This document shows positions 15,943-42,239 of a DNA stretch of 64,000 nucleotides, piece by piece; the stretch's first letter is position 1; every line of letters starts with the position of its first letter. The stretch is from a virus. Taxonomy: Duplodnaviria > Caudoviricetes. The stretch is from the IMG/VR virus record IMGVR_UViG_3300020576_005257, positions 128,001 to 192,000 of that record; one strand, written 5' to 3'. Under the pieces are notes generated by a model that saw only the letters and a program-made list of their open reading frames with translations, was not told the origin of the DNA and made no database searches. Position numbers and translations under genes: made by a program.

Positions 15943-17238
15943 TTATCCATGTGAATTGCGACAACAATTCTTATATTTAGCTCCAGGTGTTCCACAAGGA
16001 CATGGGTCATTCCTATCAGTAACACCCCAAGCTTTTCTCTTTGATTTCAAATTAGGTCCCAACTTCCCAGCCTTAGCATTTTCTATACCATTTCTCCATG
16101 CCATAGGCCATCTGTGAAAGTTAACTTCTAATGAGTAGTCAGTAACCGCAAGCTTTCTATTATTAAGTTGCATGTGGTTCCTAAGATCATGATCTACAAC
16201 CAATTTCTCAATAGCTTTATACCAAGTATCATAATTACCTTTACCCTGCCCCACAATTAAAGTAGATTCAGGATGTTGTCTAGCTAACTTAGAATAAGGT
16301 GCTACATTAGAAGCAATCATAGCTTGACCAGCAGCAAACCCTTCCAGCAGCTTGAGGTTCGATTTAGAAGCATTAAAAGCACAAGGATGAATAGGAGCTA
16401 GACCAATATCAGCACCAAACAACCCTACAGGATGATCTAGAAAATGTCGTGGTTCAACTAATGTATATCTCCCCTCAGGAATTTTCCATACGCTATTTAA
16501 AAAGCCAAACAAATCTGGAGCACCATAAAAAGCAAAATGAGTTTGTGGGTAGTCATTAAGTATTTTTGCCATAACTGGGAAAATCTGCTCTAGATCTGTT
16601 AAATGACTAGAACCTCCAGAATACATAATAACAATCTTATCTTCCCATTCTTTTGGTTTTCTGATAGGCATAGCTTCAAAAATAGGGTTACCATTTTGCC
16701 AAGAAACGTTTACGTTCCAATTTCTTAAACTGAAGTCAATATAGTTTCCAACTACTTCAATATTTTGATTAAACCTGTCGTAAGTTTGTTTGAGTTCTTC
16801 AGTTGTAACAGTCATCCCTTGGCTGTTTCTCATAAACTTCTCTAACCAAACAAGATTATCGGATCCAGGCTGATAAACACTGTAAGCAGGATTTGTGGGA
16901 AGAACAGTATGAAGGTCATCATCAATTTCAAACCACAAAAATTTACCTTCCCATTGAAGAATCCTAAACATTTCATAGGCTTCTGGGTTATGTTGTCTAG
17001 GAGCTACAATAATATCTGAATCAATAAATTGTTGTAAATTTTGAATTGAGCTATACTGTACTTGGGCTCCATGTTGTTTCAACATGTGTAATGGATTTAT
17101 AACCCTATAATGACCACAGGCACCATTATCTGCAACAAGACCTACTACCTTTAAGTCTTTATATTGATTAGTTATTTGTTGATCTGGAAGAGTGGTGGTA
17201 GAAGTAGAAACTTTCTCCAATAATAGTTCAGAATTCAT
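15943..17238 (-). CDS. GT-B fold glycosyltransferase (GT4-like) with C-terminal SEC-C Zn motif
   Basis: GACGHYRV, EIDDDL, GGSSH, DIGLAP...FNASKSNLKLLEG.AAG..IASNV.PY; C-terminal RNDPCPCGTPGAKYKNCC. Confidence 0.88.
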   Translation of the reverse strand: MNSELLLEKVSTSTTTLPDQQITNQYKDLKVVGLVADNGACGHYRVINPLHMLKQHGAQVQYSSIQNLQQFIDSDIIVAPRQHNPEAYEMFRILQWEGKFLWFEIDDDLHTVLPTNPAYSVYQPGSDNLVWLEKFMRNSQGMTVTTEELKQTYDRFNQNIEVVGNYIDFSLRNWNVNVSWQNGNPIFEAMPIRKPKEWEDKIVIMYSGGSSHLTDLEQIFPVMAKILNDYPQTHFAFYGAPDLFGFLNSVWKIPEGRYTLVEPRHFLDHPVGLFGADIGLAPIHPCAFNASKSNLKLLEGFAAGQAMIASNVAPYSKLARQHPESTLIVGQGKGNYDTWYKAIEKLVVDHDLRNHMQLNNRKLAVTDYSLEVNFHRWPMAWRNGIENAKAGKLGPNLKSKRKAWGVTDRNDPCPCGTPGAKYKNCCRNSHG

Positions 17239-17255: not shown

Positions 17256-17669
17256 TTACTCAATACTATGTTCTATTCTGGGGAATACCTCTCCCCTTTT
17301 TAGATCCAATGTGCTACTAACTTGGATAACTTTATCTATATCTTCTACAGAAGGAATTTCAATTAACACAAACACTTCATCTCCATCTAATGGAACACAT
17401 TTCACAGTTATGGCAACAATTGAAAAGTCTTGCGTTAAAGTTCTTTTAATAGATTCTTCAATCAAAAGCCTTGTAGCAGAATTATTCTGTCTTCCAATAA
17501 ACTCTTCTAAGCTTGTTCCAAGAGTTGGAGTAAGAGTATAATCGCCTTTCATAGTTTTAAGCCTGAATATAATGGCTTGAACCAACTGTTTGTCCCCAGT
17601 AACTGTTTCCAAGTCACCAGCAGAACTAATTACCAAATCCCCATCATCAGTAAGTTTTAAATCTCTCAT
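17256..17669 (-). CDS. gp25/W-like baseplate wedge (sheath initiator)
   Basis: DLKLTDDGDLVI..GDL..V.G...LVQ.I..RLKT.KGD....P.LG..LE..IG. Confidence 0.85.
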   Translation of the reverse strand: MRDLKLTDDGDLVISSAGDLETVTGDKQLVQAIIFRLKTMKGDYTLTPTLGTSLEEFIGRQNNSATRLLIEESIKRTLTQDFSIVAITVKCVPLDGDEVFVLIEIPSVEDIDKVIQVSSTLDLKRGEVFPRIEHSIE

Positions 17670-18214
17670 TTCTTCCCAACCTTATCCATAAATAGATCAT
17701 GGTGATCTTGTTCTGGAGTGTCAACCAATTCATAATTAGTAAACAAGTATTCTTTTTCTACAATTTTAGTTAAAGGTATTTTATTGTAGATTTCACCTGT
17801 ATTAGGGTCCGCCCTAGTAGTTTGATCCATAACAAAATAATCTTCCAGTTTTAGATCCTTTTTTACTATTAGTAGTTTGTAATCTAAATCTAGTTTCTCG
17901 TTTAATACTCGACTACCTATAGTTACATCAAACCAACTAATAGACGGGAAAGCTACATTTTTGGCAGTTGATACAAAAGCACTTGAAATAACAGCAAGTT
18001 GTCCCCATATGTCACCAATAACTCTGGTTTGACCAGCATATAAATCAAATTGACCTTGGTCTCTATAAACAGTACCCAGAGGTAAATCTGTGTGTCTTTG
18101 ACCTATCTCAGTATCAGAATAGGTGAGAAGATTAGACCTAATAGTCTGACTCTCCATCCTTTCCAGAAAAGTCTGTAAGGCTATTCGTGCCTGTTCAAAT
18201 ACGCTTATACTCAT
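17666..18214 (-). CDS. Putative baseplate/spike-associated protein
   Basis: 182 aa; position upstream of gp25-like gene. Confidence 0.4.
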   Translation of the reverse strand: MSISVFEQARIALQTFLERMESQTIRSNLLTYSDTEIGQRHTDLPLGTVYRDQGQFDLYAGQTRVIGDIWGQLAVISSAFVSTAKNVAFPSISWFDVTIGSRVLNEKLDLDYKLLIVKKDLKLEDYFVMDQTTRADPNTGEIYNKIPLTKIVEKEYLFTNYELVDTPEQDHHDLFMDKVGKK

Positions 18215-18906
18215 GGTTTGTTTATTGCATCCAGTACGCCATTAACCTTGTTAATGTTAGTGTTTTCAAAAGGATCCATAGGTGCAACGCCACCATTTTG
18301 CTTATTCAAAATATTATTAGTAGGTATACCAAGAAATTGTAAAACAGCATTGGGAATAGCACAAGTTCCTGTAGCATTATTAGTACCCTGTGCTGTTTTT
18401 TTAATGGCATCTGTTTGAGGTACATCTTGACCTATATTTCCGACCATAGGGGGAGGATTAACAGGAGCATTAGCGGTTAAAGTACCGCCTTTAGGTAATT
18501 GAGTAGTTCTCCCAGCTACAACAGTAGGCATAGTTGTTCTACCAGCAGCGAAATTAAGTTCTACTTCTATAAGTTGATTAGCATCTATGTTTGCTTCCGT
18601 CCCAGCAGACTTACCAGAGTTACCAGATAATGCACCCCAAGAAATTTTAGGTCCAAGAACAGTCCTATAATCAGTTCCTTCTGGACTACGATACACCACA
18701 GCAAGTCCTGTAGTAACAGCCTTAACCCTCTCAGCCCAAGCAGACTCTTCGTAGAGATTAATACTTGTAGTAGCACGGAGCCAAGGACTCTGAGCAAACT
18801 CAGCAACTACATCACCAGCATTAACCAAAATACCAGCACTATAGCTAGGATTAGTTCTTACTTGGTTTAAACCAGATTCATCTATTGATTCAGTAAAATC
18901 ACTCAT
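18211..18906 (-). CDS. Putative baseplate spike-region protein
   Basis: 231 aa; positional inference only. Confidence 0.35.
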   Translation of the reverse strand: MSDFTESIDESGLNQVRTNPSYSAGILVNAGDVVAEFAQSPWLRATTSINLYEESAWAERVKAVTTGLAVVYRSPEGTDYRTVLGPKISWGALSGNSGKSAGTEANIDANQLIEVELNFAAGRTTMPTVVAGRTTQLPKGGTLTANAPVNPPPMVGNIGQDVPQTDAIKKTAQGTNNATGTCAIPNAVLQFLGIPTNNILNKQNGGVAPMDPFENTNINKVNGVLDAINKP

Positions 18907-19545
18907 TTATTTAACCCCGTGAAACTCTCTTTGATTTGGTGGAATCCAACCGTTCACATTAGTCCAACTTCTATGTGATTTTCTTCTACCTTTAATCATT
19001 GCTTCAAAATTCCTAAAATCTAATCCGTTTTGTTCAGCAAACAACATGAGATTTTTGAAGTGGTGGATTTTACCTTCTGGATCAACTGCTGAATATTCTT
19101 TTCCCACTACTAATCTTTTAGCTTCAATTTGCTCTGGAGTCCTTTTCTTTCCTCTATTGCCCTCAGCTGATCTTCGAACAGCATCAGGGTCTTTTTTTGT
19201 ACCAGCTAAATGATGTCCCCCAGCCCTAGCATAATGTGTTGTATTATATAAGAGAGTTCTTTTATCATCATTGATTAATAAGTCCATGTAATATTGCTCT
19301 CTTTCAATTCTTGTTTCAATCTTACAGTTTTCTAAGATATCAAATATAAAAACTTCTGGTCCAAATTGATTCCATTCTTCTTGTAGTTGTTTACAATGAT
19401 GTTGATTTTTCCCCAATAAATTTCTATGTGTGTTAAGCCTTCTTTTCAAATAAACTGCACTTCCAATATAAACTTTATCATTAACTACATTCTTGATCTG
19501 ATAAACACCAGTTTCCCAATAACTTTTAACTTCTTTTATTCTCAT
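18907..19545 (-). mobile_element. Free-standing GIY-YIG homing endonuclease with NUMOD3-like repeats
   Basis: GVYQI...VYIGS...RR...H...EREQYY; GKKRTPEQIEAKR NUMOD3-like; C-terminal HTH-like RKSHRSW; no room for intron RNA on either side. Confidence 0.9.
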
Positions 19546-19601: not shown

Positions 19602-20342
19602 CTAAGATGTACCATAATATTCTTGGTGCCATGACTCATCAAGACCCCTTCCGTCTCTAAGCCGTTCGGGATTGTACCAACCATATTGAGGACCCACACG
19701 TTCAAACCATTTATATGTTGATGTTTTTCTCATTGCTAAGGACCCTGCTACCGAAGTAGCTCTGGTTCCACTGAAATATAATTCACCAATATCTACAGCC
19801 AAAGCCCAACCATGAGGAGACTTACCAGGAGCTGCTGCCCTGCCTCCTCCTTGTAAGGTAGCTTGGTGTGCAACATTCCTATAAGCAGAAGTAACTGTGA
19901 GTCTTACCCCATCTTTTTTTGCATGTTGTTGTAGTCTAATCCATGCATCTGCTGCATCAGGTCTTAACCAATAGAACCCCTGATACCAATTTCTGTATCT
20001 GGAATTAGGTCCGATAGCTTTTAATGCTGAAAGAGGAAGATTACCATTTTGATAACCACCCCAAGCTGCCACTTTCATACCTACATTTTGATACTGAGTT
20101 ATGCCTCCTGAGTTTCCTGTTGGGACCATTGCTGGCCCTGAACTAGGGTCAACTTCTATAGTTTCTTCTGGCTCTATGTCTCTGACTAAAACCCCTAATT
20201 CTTCCAGCTGTGAAGTCTTAATAGCTGAGTAATTTAACGTATCACCCATAGATAAGTTACTTCTTTGTTGGTCCACATATCTCTGTAGTTGACCAACTAA
20301 CGTATCATTAGGTAAACCCAAATTACTAGAATAACTATCCAT
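19602..20342 (-). CDS. M15 (VanY-like) Zn peptidoglycan peptidase with shared N-terminal tag
   Basis: LRPDAADAW, SAYR, SPHGWALAVD (SxHxxxxAxD), ESWH all intact. Confidence 0.9.
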   Translation of the reverse strand: MDSYSSNLGLPNDTLVGQLQRYVDQQRSNLSMGDTLNYSAIKTSQLEELGVLVRDIEPEETIEVDPSSGPAMVPTGNSGGITQYQNVGMKVAAWGGYQNGNLPLSALKAIGPNSRYRNWYQGFYWLRPDAADAWIRLQQHAKKDGVRLTVTSAYRNVAHQATLQGGGRAAAPGKSPHGWALAVDIGELYFSGTRATSVAGSLAMRKTSTYKWFERVGPQYGWYNPERLRDGRGLDESWHQEYYGTS

Positions 20343-21030
20343 ATTTGTACAAGTTATACTTCCTCATAATACTAATAAGCAAATTAGCATATGCTGGATC
20401 AGTCGCATATCCCGCCTTTACTAATGCCCTAGCCACATCATCTGGATTATTTAAAGTACCAATTCCTTGTTTTCTATACCTTGGTCCAGCAAGAAATTTA
20501 CCATGATCTAATACAGACTCAGACCAATTATGGTAGACCTTAAAATTCGCATTGACTCTAACTTTTCTTCCTCCATAATATTCGTTGGTTGGCATAGATA
20601 CTGTACCTGCTGGTCCAGTTCCTTTAATTCCAAACAAATTATTGTATTTAGAAGCAAGCCCACTTAATTTACCTGCTGCCCCACTTTCTAAAATAGCTTG
20701 AGCTAGAGTAATAGCTATGGGTATCCCATATTTACCTTGTGTATCCCTGGCACCATCTTGAATTTTGGATATGAATTCTTCAATATTTTTTGGTGGGGGT
20801 TCTCTGTTTACTGGTCCATTATTATCAGTAGACTGAGAGTTTTTACCAAACACAGAATCAACAACCCCACCAACCGCATCTAACCAGCCACCATTAGTTG
20901 GACCGTAGGGTAAAGTAGAACCAAAATCCAAATTAGCTCTTTGCTGTTCAACATATCTACTGAGACTCTCTTGTAGACTTTCAGCATCCTTGCCTAAATT
21001 TGAGGAATAAAGTGGATCGTTGTTATTCAT
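20335..21030 (-). CDS. GH73 glucosaminidase (FlgJ-like) with shared N-terminal tag
   Basis: AQAILESG (catalytic Glu), NNLFGIKG, GYATDPAY. Confidence 0.92.
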   Translation of the reverse strand: MNNNDPLYSSNLGKDAESLQESLSRYVEQQRANLDFGSTLPYGPTNGGWLDAVGGVVDSVFGKNSQSTDNNGPVNREPPPKNIEEFISKIQDGARDTQGKYGIPIAITLAQAILESGAAGKLSGLASKYNNLFGIKGTGPAGTVSMPTNEYYGGRKVRVNANFKVYHNWSESVLDHGKFLAGPRYRKQGIGTLNNPDDVARALVKAGYATDPAYANLLISIMRKYNLYKYG

Positions 21031-36008: not shown

Positions 36009-39000
36009 TTATCTACGTAATTGTTTTTGTTTTTCGCGTTCCACTTCCGCTCGGCGGTCGTGGTTTAGCTGCATATTAATATCTATAACGTTATGAGATG
36101 TAGGTATGGTCTCATAGTTTATTAGAATATTGCCAAATTCGCCGCTACCAGCCAATTTATCAAGTTCTCTTTGGATGTTTTCTTTGGTTCTCTTGTTCAT
36201 TCTAGGTACTTCGACCCCCTCTGAGAAAACTTTAGCCTTAGCTAGTTTTCTTTTACTGGGTCTAGCAATCTTTATGTCTTCATGCTCAGTTGCTCTGAGT
36301 TTAATGTCATCAAGGTCGGTATCTCTTCGCCAGCCACCCCAATCAGATTTAGGTAAATTGTGGTGCTTGAAGTATTCAGTTAGATTGGGTTTAGTTGGAA
36401 GCTTATCTTCTTCAACACCTAAGAACTTGCCAAGTACCCGCTTCTCAGCATTGGGTAATAAGTCATAGTATTCATCTTTCTCTGCCTGAGTAGCAGTAGT
36501 AATTATAGATTCAGCAATTTGTCTATGTCTTCTAGGTAGTGTTGCCAAAGCTTCGTCAAGCGTACCATTTACGACATCAAAACCGTACATAGTTCGTCTT
36601 GCTTTGAATTCGGCGTCACTAGCTAACTTTTCAAACTGCTTAGCTTGTAAAGCAACTTGCTGATGTCCAGTTTTAACTTGACGTTCTCCATTCTTAGCTT
36701 TTAAAGCAGCTTCAGCTATGGTAGATTCTTTGACATAGGTAAGAATATCATAATACTCATCAAAATCGTTTCTTTTTCTAGTTCTTTTTGGTTTCCAAGT
36801 TTCACCAGTTAAAGTTTCATTTAACTCTTTTAATAGAGATAAAGACGCCCCAACTGCCCCAGCAACCATAGCTGCTTTACCTTTCATCTTCTTAGTTCTG
36901 AAAAAGATGCTTGCAACTAAAGCACTTTGAGCACCAGCAACAACTGGATTCTTACTAATTATTGAATTTACAGTGGGTACAACATAATTATCTTTCAAAT
37001 TCTTTAAGGAATATTCGTCAGTTCCGTAAACCTCACCTCTTTTATATTGTTCCAAAGCTGTACGTACACGTAAGAATTTGTTAGAAAACATATTATCACT
37101 GTGTAGAATAGTATCGGTTACACTGGTTCCTAATCCATCTCTTCCAAAAACTTGATTTGCTAATGGATTTCTAGATTTGTAGTCTTCATCTGCATATTCA
37201 GACTCAATCAGTTCATGATTAACGTCCCCAAAAATAGCTTCAAGTACAGTGTTCTTGGTGACATCAGGATTGAATTGCCCTTTAATAAGAGTCACAGAGG
37301 TCTTTTGACCTACATGAATACCATATTGAGCTAATAGGTCAGCAGGATCTTTATAAGCAAAAGCTTGTTGATCATATTTAACACCAGCTAACTTAAACTG
37401 ACCCATTTCAGTTAAAATATCCCCCTCTCCAGTAATAGCCTCAACAACTAAATCCCTAGTTTCAGTGGGAACATTTCTTTTAGGATAAAGATTATAATTC
37501 TCTGTTTTAGCTTTGGCAATTTCTAAAGCAATCTCAAATCTGCGTTGCTCCATACCACCAAACCCACCTTTCTCTTTGGCGAGTTGAACATACTTTCTAA
37601 ATTCACGAGATTCAGGAGCAGCTTTTGCTAATACCTCAATCCTATCAATAAGACCATAAGTTTCATAAGGACTAACTTCCTCATTGTCAATCATCTCCTG
37701 CACACGAGCCCTTGCTCCAGCTACACGATTAAATATAGCATCCATGCGTTTAGGATCATATTTATAGGTAGCTAACCTAACTTCATCAGGGTTATCTCGA
37801 TTAACATGGGCCAAATGGCCTACCTTAGTATCAGTAAGATACATATAATACATAAGTTGATCTATGTATTTTTCATTATCCTCATTGATATTTCCAGAAC
37901 CACGAGTCTTAATTTCAACAACTTCTAAGCCACTCTTACCTCTAACTAAAGTTTCAATAGTAGCAGAACCATTAATTTCATCATCGTAAGCAGCAATTTC
38001 AGCACCAACTAAGATACCTTGCTCCCTCATTTGTCTCATAATTCTCTTATGAGCAAAAGTTCCAAAAGCCATTCTTGTCTCAGAAGCTTCATCTGCCTCT
38101 GATCCAATAGGATCAAGGAACTTCAATACCATTTCATCTTCTGAAAGACCTACCATAGATCCTCTGATTTTTAATGGTTTCACAAATGGGTTAGCTCTTT
38201 CCATCGCGTCGCCTGGAAGGATTAACTCACCGTTAGAAAGCCTAGCATATGGGTCCCCCCGTCGAAACTTATTAGGCAACCAACTAGCTTGGTTGTTTTG
38301 TAGTGGGTTGAAAGCATCTGGATCTTGTCTTTCCTCAGGCATAAATCGTCTGAAGAATTCTCCATACATACCAGGAAAAACTTCACCCATTTTAGCGTTA
38401 TAGAACAAACGAGACTTAGAAAAAGAGACACCTGGGTCTTGAATCTGGAAAGCTTCGTGTTCGTTGCTACCATAAGCTGGTATTTGGTTTACAATACCAC
38501 TATAGATACCAGTAGGCCGAAGTAATTCATCCATTACCTCATGTACTTTATGTGTAAGTTTATGTTTGTGGTACTCATGTTTTGATGCATACTTGTTGTA
38601 CCCATAATTAAAAGCTCTACCATCTTCATCGCCAGGCTCGGCAGACTGTAATGCCTCTTCTAGGCTACCTCCACCTCCCCCATAACCAGAACCACTTCCC
38701 CCTGTGCCTGGGCCAGATCCACCAGGACCAGGCATACCATGCTTCTTATAGCCCCACAGATTAGTCATAGTTTGAATAACCTTACTCATTTTGGTATGGC
38801 TTTTCTCGTATGCGTAACCTACAGAAGGATGTTCATCCAGGTAAGATAACATCTCCTCCTCAGAAGCATAGGGCCTATCTTTTTGAGTTAAGTCTTCTTG
38901 CCAGTGAGGGTGGAAAAGAGCATTAAGAGGTGCGAGTGGATTGGTTATAGTGGGCAGGAAACTATAGTTAGGGTTAGATAGTTGAACATTTCTAGCCTCA

Positions 39001-42000
39001 GTCCAATGTGATTTAAGTCTTCTATAAAGATTAGGTCTGACTGATTCTACACTTCCACCATATGCTGGATTTCTTGATCCAATTAAAAAGCCACGACCCA
39101 TTCTGATTTGTTCGTTACCATATAACAAATCCTCCCTGGTTTCCGCTTCATCCATTGGATTGTAGTACATATCAGCACCTGGAAGGCTATATACTAAGTG
39201 CTTTAATGGGTTAGTAAGCCCAAAACGATCTCTAAATTTAGATGTACTTATTCTTGCATTCCCATAAACATTAGCTGTGAAATCATCTATGCCTTCTTGA
39301 TCTTTGTTATGTAAATCAGCGTTAATATTCTTATACGCTTCCATAGCAATATAAGCCGGAATAATCCGTTTAATCATTAAATTAGTATGTGCTCTACCAA
39401 AAGTAGCTTTATCTGTTTCTGAGATTCCTAATCCTGCTTGATCAAGAACATTAGCTGCACCATGAGAAAGAGCAGTAAGGCTGGTGCTCAAATACCCTTG
39501 AGCAGAATTTGCTGAAAAGAGTCCTTTAGCAAAGTCTACAGTACCAAAGCCTCTTCCTAATTGGGTTTTAAGATGGAAAGCCATGGCCTGAGTATAAGTT
39601 AACCCATTACCAATAATTAATGACCCCATAGATGGGGTAGCAGAGGGTAATACTGTATACCTGGCTACTGCTTCTTCTGGAGCTTCTGGAACAAATGAGG
39701 GTCGTCTGGCTCTAAAGCCACCTTCATCTAATTTATCATGTATACCTAAATTGTTTACTAGTCTGTTTATAACAGAGACACCTTGCTCTTCTTTGTAAAT
39801 GGAAGTAGCAACAAGCATGGTGTCAGACCTAACCCTTTCAGCTGCAATCATTTTAGCTACTGGGTCTTCCATATATCCCGCTAATCTTTCGTGGGAAGAG
39901 AAAGCTGTAACTAATTGACCTATGCTACCTTCTGAGAGAGATCCTTCATCTGGGTTAAAGTTCTTTAAAGCACCTTCAAACAAATAATTAAATTCAGAAT
40001 CAGAACTTACATTTAAATGTTTAGTAAAAATTCCTTTAATTTTGTTTGCGTTTTCTATTTGTGTAGGATCAATTAAAGTTCCCCTTTCTTTTAATAAGTT
40101 TAATGCTATATCTTGATCTAACCCAGTTGCCGCTTTAACCTCTGAGAATAATTCTGATTTAGCAGAAGCTCTGGTAAATTCTTCAATTAGTCCTCGTTGT
40201 AAGTCTTTTTGAATTTTAGATACAGCATCATCTCCAAAGACTTGTTCTTTGGTCGGGGGTGTTAATACTGAATTTAACTCTACCTTGTTCTGTGCGGGGG
40301 CACTAATATCATAAATTCTATTAGGACTTTCTATAAAATCAGATAAGGCTTTTTCTAGTGTGGAGTTTACTTGGTTGTTGGAAAGAGCCTCCAAATCCAT
40401 AGTACCTAAATGATCAGCCAAAGCTTCTGGATTATCAGAAAGCTCCATAAGTCTAATTAAATCCTCACTAAGAGGAATACCATCTTTTCTAGCTTTAGAA
40501 GCTAGCTTCTTTACAGTAGGGGATAAGTCATTAAAATCTAAGTTAGCCATACCCCCAATCATTCTTCTTTGAAGGTCTAGCTCTACATTAGGTGTAATTT
40601 TTCCAGTATTCTCTTTTAAAAACTGGGAGATAAGGGTTGGGTGTATTTGATCAGAAGTAACTGATGTAGCTGTAGGATCCACACCAAGAATCTTCCCAGC
40701 AAGACTGCCCATAATATTTTTCGGAACAAGTTTTAATTCCCCATCATTAACATTAAGATTGAATAATTCTGGTTGGAAGTGATGAAGTAAATTTTCCAGC
40801 ACAGTTTTACTTCCACCTTCTGGACGTTGTAAACTTTCCTTGGCAGCTTTTAGAAATCCTTTAGTTGATACTTGATCTGAGAAATCACTGAAAGCATTGT
40901 CTAATAAATTAGCCCTAGTTCCAGCCATCTCTTTTAATACAGTGCTTCTTTCATTGTTTAAGAAAATAAATCTAGAAGCTTGTTCAGCATTAACTCTGTC
41001 AACTGTAAAATCTGTACCTTGTCTCCCAAAACTAAAAATCTGTTCTCCAATAGATAAGCCAAACTCGTTATCATAGTTTAACCCCATCCTCTTAAGCTCA
41101 CCAAGCTTACTCATTTCTCCAAGAAATTTTACAGGAGTTTTATCAGGAGAATAGGCACCACCTAAAGTGAAGGGGATGTTAAATTTAATAGGTTGGAGAG
41201 GAAACTGTAATGCTTGTTTTGCCCTATTAACGAAAGTTCTTCTGCTGTTACGTGCGTGTACGAGAGATAAAACATCTCCATTTTTATCAACACCAAGACC
41301 ACTAAAACTCTTTAAGTAGGCTTCCCTTAACTCAGCATGCTGCTCTCCACCCAGTTCAATAAGATTACTTTCAATCTTTCCAAAGATTTCATCAGCAGTT
41401 TTCTTGTGCCCAGTATTTCTTAAATATTGATCTACTTTTTCCCGGTGGGACCCAGTTATTTCTTCAATTGTTAGTCCACGATGATTTTTATTATGCAACA
41501 TTCCTTGCAAATCTAAACCAGCTTTCTCACTAGCATTCATTTCTCTGGCATGTTTAGCTAATGCACCAAAGATAACATCCCTATTTTTTGATCCATTCTT
41601 ACCACCAAATAAATTCTTCTCAGTAGATACTTGTCTTCTCTTAGCAAGATCAATGGCATCATCCATACTTTGCTTTACAGAAGCCCTATGCTGTTCCAAT
41701 AAAACAGCAGGTTTGACGTTCTCAGTCATGTAATTGAATCTAACACCTTTAGTAGATTCCATGAAACGTTGCATGGTACTATCACTAAGGAGCTTCCCAG
41801 ACATATGTTCCACCTCACCAGAGAGGAATTCATGGAAAACATCAGTTAGATGGGGTGCTATTTTATCAAAATGTTCAAGACTATCTTCATGAACATTCTT
41901 CCGTAAAGACTCAGTTAGAGCTTCTCTACGAATGTCCCGCATAGCTCCACGAAGAAAACTTCTTCTTACTTGTGGAACACTGTCGGCAAAATAATTAAAA

Positions 42001-42239
42001 GTGTCTGAGAAAAGGGTTTTAGTATCGTGTACACCAACAATAGGACCTAAGATACGTCTTAATGTGCTGCTTTGATCACTTAAAGCATTAGCTGCGTTAG
42101 AACCCAAAGTTCTGGGGGCGAGATAAGCAACCGAGCCCAAACCAACAGCAGCAATACCAGCATATTTAGCCAATGCTGAAATTTTATCAGCAAAGCTATC
42201 ATCATGCTCTTTGTGGTATTGAGAATTGGATCCTAGCAT
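36009..42239 (-). CDS. Tape-measure-position giant virion protein with PD-(D/E)XK nuclease-like and SNase-like domains
   Basis: 2076 aa directly after tail chaperones; GTFAH...E...EIKT...QLMYY; SNase-like KLAGV...VNHELIESEYA. Confidence 0.6.
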   Translation of the reverse strand: MLGSNSQYHKEHDDSFADKISALAKYAGIAAVGLGSVAYLAPRTLGSNAANALSDQSSTLRRILGPIVGVHDTKTLFSDTFNYFADSVPQVRRSFLRGAMRDIRREALTESLRKNVHEDSLEHFDKIAPHLTDVFHEFLSGEVEHMSGKLLSDSTMQRFMESTKGVRFNYMTENVKPAVLLEQHRASVKQSMDDAIDLAKRRQVSTEKNLFGGKNGSKNRDVIFGALAKHAREMNASEKAGLDLQGMLHNKNHRGLTIEEITGSHREKVDQYLRNTGHKKTADEIFGKIESNLIELGGEQHAELREAYLKSFSGLGVDKNGDVLSLVHARNSRRTFVNRAKQALQFPLQPIKFNIPFTLGGAYSPDKTPVKFLGEMSKLGELKRMGLNYDNEFGLSIGEQIFSFGRQGTDFTVDRVNAEQASRFIFLNNERSTVLKEMAGTRANLLDNAFSDFSDQVSTKGFLKAAKESLQRPEGGSKTVLENLLHHFQPELFNLNVNDGELKLVPKNIMGSLAGKILGVDPTATSVTSDQIHPTLISQFLKENTGKITPNVELDLQRRMIGGMANLDFNDLSPTVKKLASKARKDGIPLSEDLIRLMELSDNPEALADHLGTMDLEALSNNQVNSTLEKALSDFIESPNRIYDISAPAQNKVELNSVLTPPTKEQVFGDDAVSKIQKDLQRGLIEEFTRASAKSELFSEVKAATGLDQDIALNLLKERGTLIDPTQIENANKIKGIFTKHLNVSSDSEFNYLFEGALKNFNPDEGSLSEGSIGQLVTAFSSHERLAGYMEDPVAKMIAAERVRSDTMLVATSIYKEEQGVSVINRLVNNLGIHDKLDEGGFRARRPSFVPEAPEEAVARYTVLPSATPSMGSLIIGNGLTYTQAMAFHLKTQLGRGFGTVDFAKGLFSANSAQGYLSTSLTALSHGAANVLDQAGLGISETDKATFGRAHTNLMIKRIIPAYIAMEAYKNINADLHNKDQEGIDDFTANVYGNARISTSKFRDRFGLTNPLKHLVYSLPGADMYYNPMDEAETREDLLYGNEQIRMGRGFLIGSRNPAYGGSVESVRPNLYRRLKSHWTEARNVQLSNPNYSFLPTITNPLAPLNALFHPHWQEDLTQKDRPYASEEEMLSYLDEHPSVGYAYEKSHTKMSKVIQTMTNLWGYKKHGMPGPGGSGPGTGGSGSGYGGGGGSLEEALQSAEPGDEDGRAFNYGYNKYASKHEYHKHKLTHKVHEVMDELLRPTGIYSGIVNQIPAYGSNEHEAFQIQDPGVSFSKSRLFYNAKMGEVFPGMYGEFFRRFMPEERQDPDAFNPLQNNQASWLPNKFRRGDPYARLSNGELILPGDAMERANPFVKPLKIRGSMVGLSEDEMVLKFLDPIGSEADEASETRMAFGTFAHKRIMRQMREQGILVGAEIAAYDDEINGSATIETLVRGKSGLEVVEIKTRGSGNINEDNEKYIDQLMYYMYLTDTKVGHLAHVNRDNPDEVRLATYKYDPKRMDAIFNRVAGARARVQEMIDNEEVSPYETYGLIDRIEVLAKAAPESREFRKYVQLAKEKGGFGGMEQRRFEIALEIAKAKTENYNLYPKRNVPTETRDLVVEAITGEGDILTEMGQFKLAGVKYDQQAFAYKDPADLLAQYGIHVGQKTSVTLIKGQFNPDVTKNTVLEAIFGDVNHELIESEYADEDYKSRNPLANQVFGRDGLGTSVTDTILHSDNMFSNKFLRVRTALEQYKRGEVYGTDEYSLKNLKDNYVVPTVNSIISKNPVVAGAQSALVASIFFRTKKMKGKAAMVAGAVGASLSLLKELNETLTGETWKPKRTRKRNDFDEYYDILTYVKESTIAEAALKAKNGERQVKTGHQQVALQAKQFEKLASDAEFKARRTMYGFDVVNGTLDEALATLPRRHRQIAESIITTATQAEKDEYYDLLPNAEKRVLGKFLGVEEDKLPTKPNLTEYFKHHNLPKSDWGGWRRDTDLDDIKLRATEHEDIKIARPSKRKLAKAKVFSEGVEVPRMNKRTKENIQRELDKLAGSGEFGNILINYETIPTSHNVIDINMQLNHDRRAEVEREKQKQLRR

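Follow-up and report, generated by a model that had tools for sequence, protein, structure and literature searches.

A shared N-terminal tag on two wall hydrolases

The window analysed herein is the whole stretch of 64,000 nucleotides, that is bases 128001-192000 of a 234,927-bp IMG/VR virus record whose completeness is estimated as 95% by CheckV. It contains the gene of a giant hub protein, and directly behind it two genes for peptidoglycan hydrolases, namely a GH73 glucosaminidase in the first position (slot 1, protein P0001) and a VanY/M15 peptidase in the second (slot 2, protein P0002), both of which begin with the same short peptide, hereafter called the tag. A sequence-only reading of this stretch had noticed that the two enzymes share a 35-residue N-terminal segment, and in fact residues 8-42 of P0001 align without gaps to residues 4-38 of P0002 with 20/35 identities, at the positions listed in Table 1. 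When the two proteins are compared by BLASTP, their N-termini are the sole significant match (26/68 identities, E=9e-10), and the remainder yields nothing better than E>1. Behind the tag, as that reading also held, come unrelated linkers and then unrelated catalytic domains that look intact.

The match of P0001 to PF01832 scores 114.6 bits against a cut-off of 30.2 and covers profile positions 4-123 of 123. The marks sought for GH73 were a catalytic Glu in A-x-x-x-E-S-G and a C-terminal Y-A-T-D-P-x-Y, and the motifs AQAILESG (Glu115) and YATDPAY, read from the sequence of P0001 and not from an alignment to a characterised enzyme, are kept in the related genome L011. For P0002, PF02557 scores 55 bits against a cut-off of 25, and the zinc-ligand pattern H-x6-D ... 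E-x-x-H is present with H177, D184, E236 and H239 invariant in 9 orthologues. Moreover, the stop of the hub gene overlaps the start of the slot-1 gene by 8 nt (ATGAATAA), and the stop of the slot-1 gene overlaps the start of the slot-2 gene likewise by 8 nt (ATGGATAG); these overlaps suggest that translation of the three genes is coupled.

Nothing in Pfam or the PDB resembles the tag. A tag profile run on the whole genome retrieves exactly P0001 and P0002, the next best match having E=1.2; no Pfam family is found at E<=0.1 over the first 90 residues of either protein, and a PDB sequence search with the tag gives nothing at E<0.3. As wall-binding and secretion modules we considered PG_binding, LysM, SH3b and signal or signal-arrest-release (SAR) peptides, recognised by a profile match or by a hydrophobic segment in the first 60 residues. 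With no Pfam or PDB match and no hydrophobic stretch, the earlier view that the tag is neither a signal peptide nor a known wall-binding domain holds. The 18 tags collected from the window and its relatives have net charges from -9 to +3, thus acidic to neutral, show moderate amphipathicity and contain no hydrophobic stretch, which speaks against a signal peptide or a membrane-active helix. AlphaFold2 models of nine VanY orthologues place one helix in the tag, at residues 12-29, with a predicted local distance difference test score (pLDDT) of ~60 and low-confidence flanks; residues 34-67 of the slot-2 linker have pLDDT <50, and the VanY fold itself is confident.

Table 1. Features of the hub region and its neighbours, in positions of the window
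Feature	Positions	Strand	Evidence or remark
Giant hub protein, 2683 aa	21023..29074	-	prime candidate carrier of the tagged enzymes; phrog_20474 E=5e-84
Hub C-terminal conserved domain, last 140 aa	21026..21445	-	mean column identity 56% (7-genome alignment)
Slot-1 gene, tagged GH73 glucosaminidase P0001, 231 aa	20335..21030	-	PF01832, residues 94-227, E=5.8e-33
Slot-1 tag core, residues 8-42	20905..21009	-	BLASTP vs slot-2 tag E=9e-10
Slot-1 linker, residues 43-93	20752..20904	-	Gly/Asn/Pro/Ser-rich by sequence; no family match
GH73 catalytic domain, residues 94-227	20350..20751	-	Pfam PF01832
Slot-2 gene, tagged VanY/M15 peptidase P0002, 246 aa	19602..20342	-	PF02557, residues 126-244, E=9.3e-15
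Slot-2 tag core, residues 4-38	20229..20333	-	BLASTP vs slot-1 tag
Slot-2 linker and predicted beta-hairpin, residues 39-125	19968..20228	-	strands 69-78 and 81-90 (AlphaFold2)
VanY catalytic domain, residues 126-244	19611..19967	-	Pfam PF02557
GIY-YIG homing-endonuclease gene	18907-19545	-	between the VanY gene and the next conserved gene
Conserved 231-aa protein	18211..18906	-	after the enzyme pair in all relatives
gp25-like sheath initiator	17256..17669	-	PF10934 E=1.7e-7; phrog_975 E=1e-17; marks baseplate module
Glycosyltransferase	15943-17238	-	C-terminal SEC-C zinc motif
2076-aa protein	36009-42239	-	in virion-gene block; nuclease region

Exchange of catalytic domains behind the tag

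The same arrangement is found in nine distinct types of related jumbo-phage genomes, all of them uncultured and metagenomic. With near-duplicates counted once, these types are the window (with L003/L004), L011, L009/L010, L007, L008, L012/L056, L013, L110/L111 and L112. The diverged relatives were recovered by a search with the whole VanY protein and then with alignments of VanY and of the hub C-terminus; searches with the tag only gave near-identical copies and nothing else, and single-protein searches of the locus in IMG/VR gave no match, so that alignment queries were required. In all nine types, the two genes directly after the hub gene encode a pair with mutually similar N-termini, and the starts of the pair overlap or abut the preceding gene. 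For example, the within-genome comparison of the N-termini by BLASTP gives E=4e-12 in L110, E=7e-6 in L013 and E=7e-4 in L112. As the paired N-terminus recurs in eight further genomes, it is not due to chance.

Our results also show that the domain behind the tag varies. Slot 1 holds GH73 in the window and L011, SLT in L007, L012 and L013, a weak SLT or transglycosylase-like domain in L009, an unnamed domain with an SLT-like E-S...G-Y-F-Q motif in L008, Phage_lysozyme2 in L110 (E=7e-35) and GH108 in L112; slot 2 holds VanY in seven genome types, CHAP in L112 and an unnamed domain in L110. Judged by these family assignments, slot 1 is always a glycan cutter and slot 2 a peptide cutter, and the enzyme families are exchanged behind the tag, with at least 8 types of catalytic domain in total. 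For several of these domains, the best PHROGs matches are lytic domains embedded in tape-measure, hub and tail proteins. The proposal of a module carrying interchangeable enzymes is thereby borne out, as the tag stands in front of glycosidases of at least five families and peptidases of at least three types, and always in the two genes that directly follow the hub gene; the check that the sequence-only reading had called for thus came out in its favour, with the tag N-terminal to diverse hydrolases adjoining a hub gene.

The further suggestion of a general system for cargo loading did not survive, since the tag is carried by only two proteins per genome in one clade of uncultured jumbo phages, with 1.84 billion representative proteins searched. 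What stands of that interpretation is a separate module in front of swappable enzymes, and what falls is a general cargo code. A two-sequence tag profile run against the 1.84 billion representatives found its own cluster only, plus repeat proteins that sum many short matches; a ten-sequence profile run against the longer proteins of a 5.8-billion set found the already-known members only; and neither the tag nor the hub C-terminus had a tblastn match among 50,697 phage records. This distribution bears on the possibility that the tag is a sorting signal or pro-peptide, that is, a signal for loading into the capsid or the tube lumen, or a leader removed by a protease. In favour of it, the tag is N-terminal, short, evolutionarily transferable between unrelated domains and followed by a disordered linker, and in the Photorhabdus virulence cassette (PVC) it is likewise signals at the N-terminus of the payloads that direct them into the lumen of the tube (PMC11495950, PMC10097599). 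However, only two proteins per genome carry the tag, their genes belong to the tail-hub module and not to the head genes, known signals are not similar to it in sequence, and no loading ATPase was seen nearby, though none was searched for. We regard a sorting role as quite unlikely.

Several other loci were considered in the course of these searches. In L114 a lone hydrolase follows the hub, and the 18-sequence tag profile does not recognise it. The phage group of L019 was rejected as a further carrier, the N-termini of its two enzymes being not significantly alike (E=0.04), and the recurrent weak matches of the tag profile in baseplate-J proteins of this group look spurious. The locus itself (L019 3545-5717, with similar loci in L014-L018 and L071) encodes two putative wall enzymes in succession, right ahead of the gp25-like and baseplate-J genes, namely a 400-aa protein ending in VanY and then a 322-aa protein with a GH19-like motif recognised by eye only. 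Another protein, the metagenomic P0008 of 463 aa, has about 13 tandem repeats of the form (V/I)(E/D)QQR-x4-LGS, resembling the tag core V-E-Q-Q-R-A-N-L-D-F-G-S, and after them come a hydrophobic segment and then an SH3 domain of the bacterial kind; the repeats have no Pfam family, and the likeness may be chance summed over the repeats.

Concerted evolution of the two tags

In each genome the two tags resemble each other more than either resembles its own orthologues. In a MAFFT alignment of seven genomes, the identity of the tag cores is 46% within a genome, against 25% among orthologues of slot 1, 23% among those of slot 2, and 22% between slot 1 and slot 2 of different genomes, and none of the 5040 permutations surpasses the true pairing. 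Without any alignment of the set, Smith-Waterman scores in nine genomes make the true pairing the single best of 362,880 permutations, with a mean of 76 within genomes versus 32 across them. In quartets, 100 sites group the tags by genome, 16 by slot and 2 in the crossed manner. The quartet formed by the window and its sister L011, which both have GH73 in slot 1 and whose VanY domains are 73% identical, gives 6:1:0, with six parallel changes (Y/F, L/I, G/P, V/L, Q/E, L/M) and one slot-specific change.

Recent copying does not account for this likeness. The ends of the tags stay slot-specific in close relatives, L-P-Y-G-P in slot 1 and D-P-E-E in slot 2, and the tags have therefore not simply been re-copied recently. 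Where both tags of one genome have the same residue, they share its codon in 50/102 cases versus 47.2 expected from codon usage (p=0.32), and the nucleotide identity of paired tag cores is only 0.39-0.58; with neither an excess of shared codons nor high nucleotide identity, recent gene conversion is not the cause. Moreover, over codons 1-45 of slot 1 the window differs from its 97% relative L003 by 8 synonymous and 1 non-synonymous changes, and the tag is, by this count, under purifying selection. At larger distance it evolves much faster than the enzyme behind it, as between the window and L013 the identity is 11-15% in the tag and 44% in the catalytic domain.

Two explanations of the tag have to be weighed at this point. 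The likeness of the tags could be a functionless by-product of tandem duplication and occasional gene conversion, in line with the genes being adjacent and in the same orientation and with concerted evolution being the classic signature of conversion; but the codon count, the low nucleotide identity and the 8:1 ratio, which indicates purifying selection, all argue otherwise, as does the retention of the tag in nine diverged genomes despite repeated replacement of the catalytic domain, and we consider this explanation extremely improbable. The tag could also be a mini module binding the host envelope, both copies tracking the same host ligand, for which likeness within genomes together with fast divergence between them would equally be expected from adaptation to different hosts. 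Yet a single helix of ~18 residues is far smaller than known wall-binding domains, the tag has no match in Pfam or the PDB, and with its acidic to neutral charge and moderate amphipathicity it is unlike membrane-binding helices, so envelope binding seems very unlikely.

A recombination breakpoint at the boundary of tag and catalytic domain was rejected on the comparison of the window with its 97% relative, in which the mismatches gather instead in the last 200 nt of the VanY gene. Against L003, this end of the gene (~19602-19800, ~200 nt) has 18-23 mismatches per 90 nt, and the preceding 600 nt have 0-2 per 90 nt. Next to it, between the VanY gene and the next conserved gene, lies the GIY-YIG homing-endonuclease gene of Table 1, which is absent in the 97%-identical L003/L004, and in L007 this position is taken by another GIY-YIG gene. 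The mismatch tract beside the endonuclease looks like co-conversion from homing.

The hub and the genomic context

The source genome is that of a jumbo phage with ~38% G+C, in which the minus strand holds nearly all genes, and it encodes GroEL, RuvC and several giant proteins. Megablast of the region against the 50,697 phage records gave no match, hence no cultured phage is alike at the DNA level. At the protein level, the hub is collinear, over its residues ~109-2188, with residues 233-1410 of gp147, the annotated baseplate hub of Bacillus thuringiensis phage 0305phi8-36 (E=6e-22 in the best segment). That protein has been described as a hyperplastic homologue of T4 gp27, with lytic domains where the T4 tail lysozyme sits (PMC2147016), and our domain search finds at its end a fused NlpC/P60 (1633-1741) and M23 (1796-1880). 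The 2683-aa hub of the window has no Pfam hydrolase domain and no SLT match at E<=0.01, and at its end lie a stretch resembling a coiled coil and a conserved, hydrophobic domain of ~140 residues, which stands in the place of the fused NlpC/P60 and M23 domains of gp147. The coiled-coil stretch and the extreme C-terminal tail are more variable than this conserved domain. Besides its two C-terminal peptidases, gp147 also has an N-terminal transglycosylase (PMC2147016); the hub of the window is without a Pfam-detectable lytic domain.

Downstream of the pair follow the GIY-YIG endonuclease, two conserved proteins, the gp25-like protein, a glycosyltransferase and the baseplate-J protein. The gp25-like protein is homologous to gp150 of 0305phi8-36 (E=2e-9), and the downstream synteny with that phage holds. 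The tagged pair thus fills the place of the fused enzymes of gp147; in other words, at the site where 0305phi8-36 has two fused enzymes, the window has two separate genes. As to the neighbours, the AlphaFold2 model of the 231-aa protein downstream has a mean pLDDT of 39 and is unusable for fold comparison; the glycosyltransferase keeps its place between the gp25-like and baseplate-J genes in all relatives examined; and the 2076-aa protein in the virion-gene block has a nuclease region of the PD-(D/E)XK or Cas4-RecE-like kind at residues ~1375-1515 (phrog_1706 E=4e-12, phrog_434 E=1e-8).

A proposed docking peptide for tail lysins

From the position of the genes, the fused arrangement in gp147 of 0305phi8-36 and the concerted evolution of the tags, we infer that the tag may be a peptide for assembly or docking, by which both enzymes are attached to the hub complex, a reading to which we give an even chance. 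According to it, a peptide of ~35-45 residues, with one amphipathic helix, conserved flanks and then a flexible linker of 40-90 residues, would bring to the central hub complex of the contractile tail two hydrolases that are encoded separately and belong to the virion. There, one enzyme would cleave glycan strands and the other peptide stems. Docking without a covalent bond would thus replace the covalent fusion of two hydrolases at the C-terminus of the 0305phi8-36 hub, and the C-terminal extension of the window's hub, ~490 residues, is the prime candidate for the partner. If attachment rested on the tag alone, the catalytic domain behind it would be swappable and could be exchanged by recombination; if one phage-specific site tethered both enzymes, or if the enzymes were joined to each other and, as a pair, to the hub, both tags would have to fit the same fast-drifting site, or each other, and parallel change within each phage would follow.

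In all nine genome types, the pair is encoded inside the tail or baseplate module, between the gp147-type hub and the gp25-like and gpJ-like genes. Candidates for the endolysin are found elsewhere in the genome, namely a 290-aa Amidase_2 protein (genome 101512-102384, minus strand, E=4e-16) and a 144-aa SLT protein (genome 34763-35197, plus strand) whose hydrophobic N-terminus is like a signal-anchor, and such separate candidates for lysis fit a virion role of the tagged pair. A different explanation is that the tags are hetero-oligomerisation helices that join the two enzymes into a soluble two-component endolysin with no attachment to the virion. The parallel hydrophobic substitutions between the window and L011 (Y/F, L/I, V/L, L/M) are what a shared helical core would be expected to show, every pair combines a glycan cutter with a peptide cutter, as two-domain endolysins do, and the apparent translational coupling would favour equal amounts; a complex prediction from the alignments of the slot-1 and slot-2 tags scored 0.00, which counts neither for nor against binding. 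However, the pair stands between hub and baseplate genes in nine genomes and not beside any holin-like gene, the homologous hub of 0305phi8-36 carries such domains within a virion protein, the other endolysin candidates lie elsewhere, and neither P0001 nor P0002 has a wall-binding domain in Pfam. We hold such a lysin to be rather unlikely; if the tag were a heterodimerisation helix after all, it would define a new type of two-component lysin.

Several points weigh against a docking peptide. The AlphaFold2 confidence of the tag helix is only ~60, and no binding partner of the tag was found. The conserved C-terminal domain of the hub, judged by its 56% mean column identity, evolves much more slowly than the tags and is not an evident candidate for a receptor that co-evolves with them. 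Similarity within genomes would also arise from gene conversion long ago, or if the tag had been copied anew several times. Moreover, no third tagged protein and no fused intermediate turned up in the searches of the genome and the protein sets, and the whole clade is metagenomic, hence no virion proteome exists for it. The more specific idea that the tag is the peptide half of a small peptide-receptor pair, in rapid co-evolution with a site on the hub complex and serving non-covalent plug-in enzymes, is put forward tentatively, with somewhat less than an even chance; if true, phages would have in it their own equivalent of the cargo tags known from contractile injection systems, and in principle a 40-residue handle by which foreign proteins could be loaded onto a phage tail.

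A cultured relative of 0305phi8-36, Bacillus phage vB_BauM_KLEB27-3, has a separate 376-aa gene after the hub, gp036 (L116 11417-12547), which carries the annotation 'structural protein, LT-like domain-containing protein'. If this annotation is true, the gene would be a precedent for a free-standing post-hub lysin in the virion.

As normally described, the lysins associated with phage tails are domains of larger proteins, fused into the hub, the spike or the tape measure. In the clade of the window, the same job appears to be done by free-standing enzymes with a common short address peptide. What is new is the short twin tag on free-standing, hub-adjacent peptidoglycan hydrolases, with documented domain swapping and parallel evolution. 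If the tag is a docking handle, a phage lineage could retool its wall-penetration chemistry while the conserved hub stays untouched, the two tags would provide a clean natural case of peptide-receptor co-evolution in parallel, and a compact tag would be at hand to display enzymes on phage tails.

Comparison with known systems

By descent and position, the closest known system is, on homology and gene order, the gp147-type hub of 0305phi8-36. Both have a homologous hub core, two wall-degrading activities at the 3' end of the hub gene or just after it, and the same downstream order to the gp25-like and gpJ-like genes. The likeness fails on the defining covalent fusion: in gp147, NlpC/P60 and M23 lie inside the hub polypeptide, whereas the window's clade has a hub with another conserved C-terminal extension and two separate enzymes with a common N-terminal tag. 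Other myophages have lysins fused to the hub, namely the gp5 lysozyme in T4 and, in Staphylococcus phage 812, the CHAP 'cleaver' (PMC13433997). These place a hydrolase at the centre of the baseplate for local digestion of the wall during penetration, a role which the tagged enzymes would share; in those phages the attachment is covalent, and separate tag-bearing enzymes are not part of the system.

Two further systems are looser analogies. In the PVC and other extracellular contractile injection systems (eCIS), a short transferable N-terminal peptide links unrelated proteins to a contractile particle (PMC11495950, PMC10097599), a role which the tag of the window's clade would share; but there the Pvc15 ATPase is needed, the cargo lies in the tube lumen and payload types are many, whereas the window's clade has only two tagged enzymes per genome, and the payload signals have no sequence similarity to the tag. 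The capsid targeting sequence of T4 is likewise an N-terminal address peptide common to unrelated proteins of one phage. However, it has ~10 residues, is cleaved by the prohead protease and is directed to the head; the tag of the window has ~40 residues and is encoded in the tail-hub module, which argues against a signal of that type.

By logic, the closest analogue is the N-terminal anchor with exchangeable enzyme of phage receptor-binding proteins (PMC6872550, PMC8262889). In phages of Klebsiella and related ones, these proteins combine a conserved N-terminal anchor or short docking peptide, which attaches to the tail, with a C-terminal depolymerase that is exchanged horizontally (PMC6872550, PMC8262889). 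They are trimeric peripheral tailspikes that act on the capsule and have no sequence homology to the tag, whereas the enzymes of the window's clade are small, monomer-sized peptidoglycan hydrolases adjoining the hub, and their tags are copies of each other that evolve in concert.

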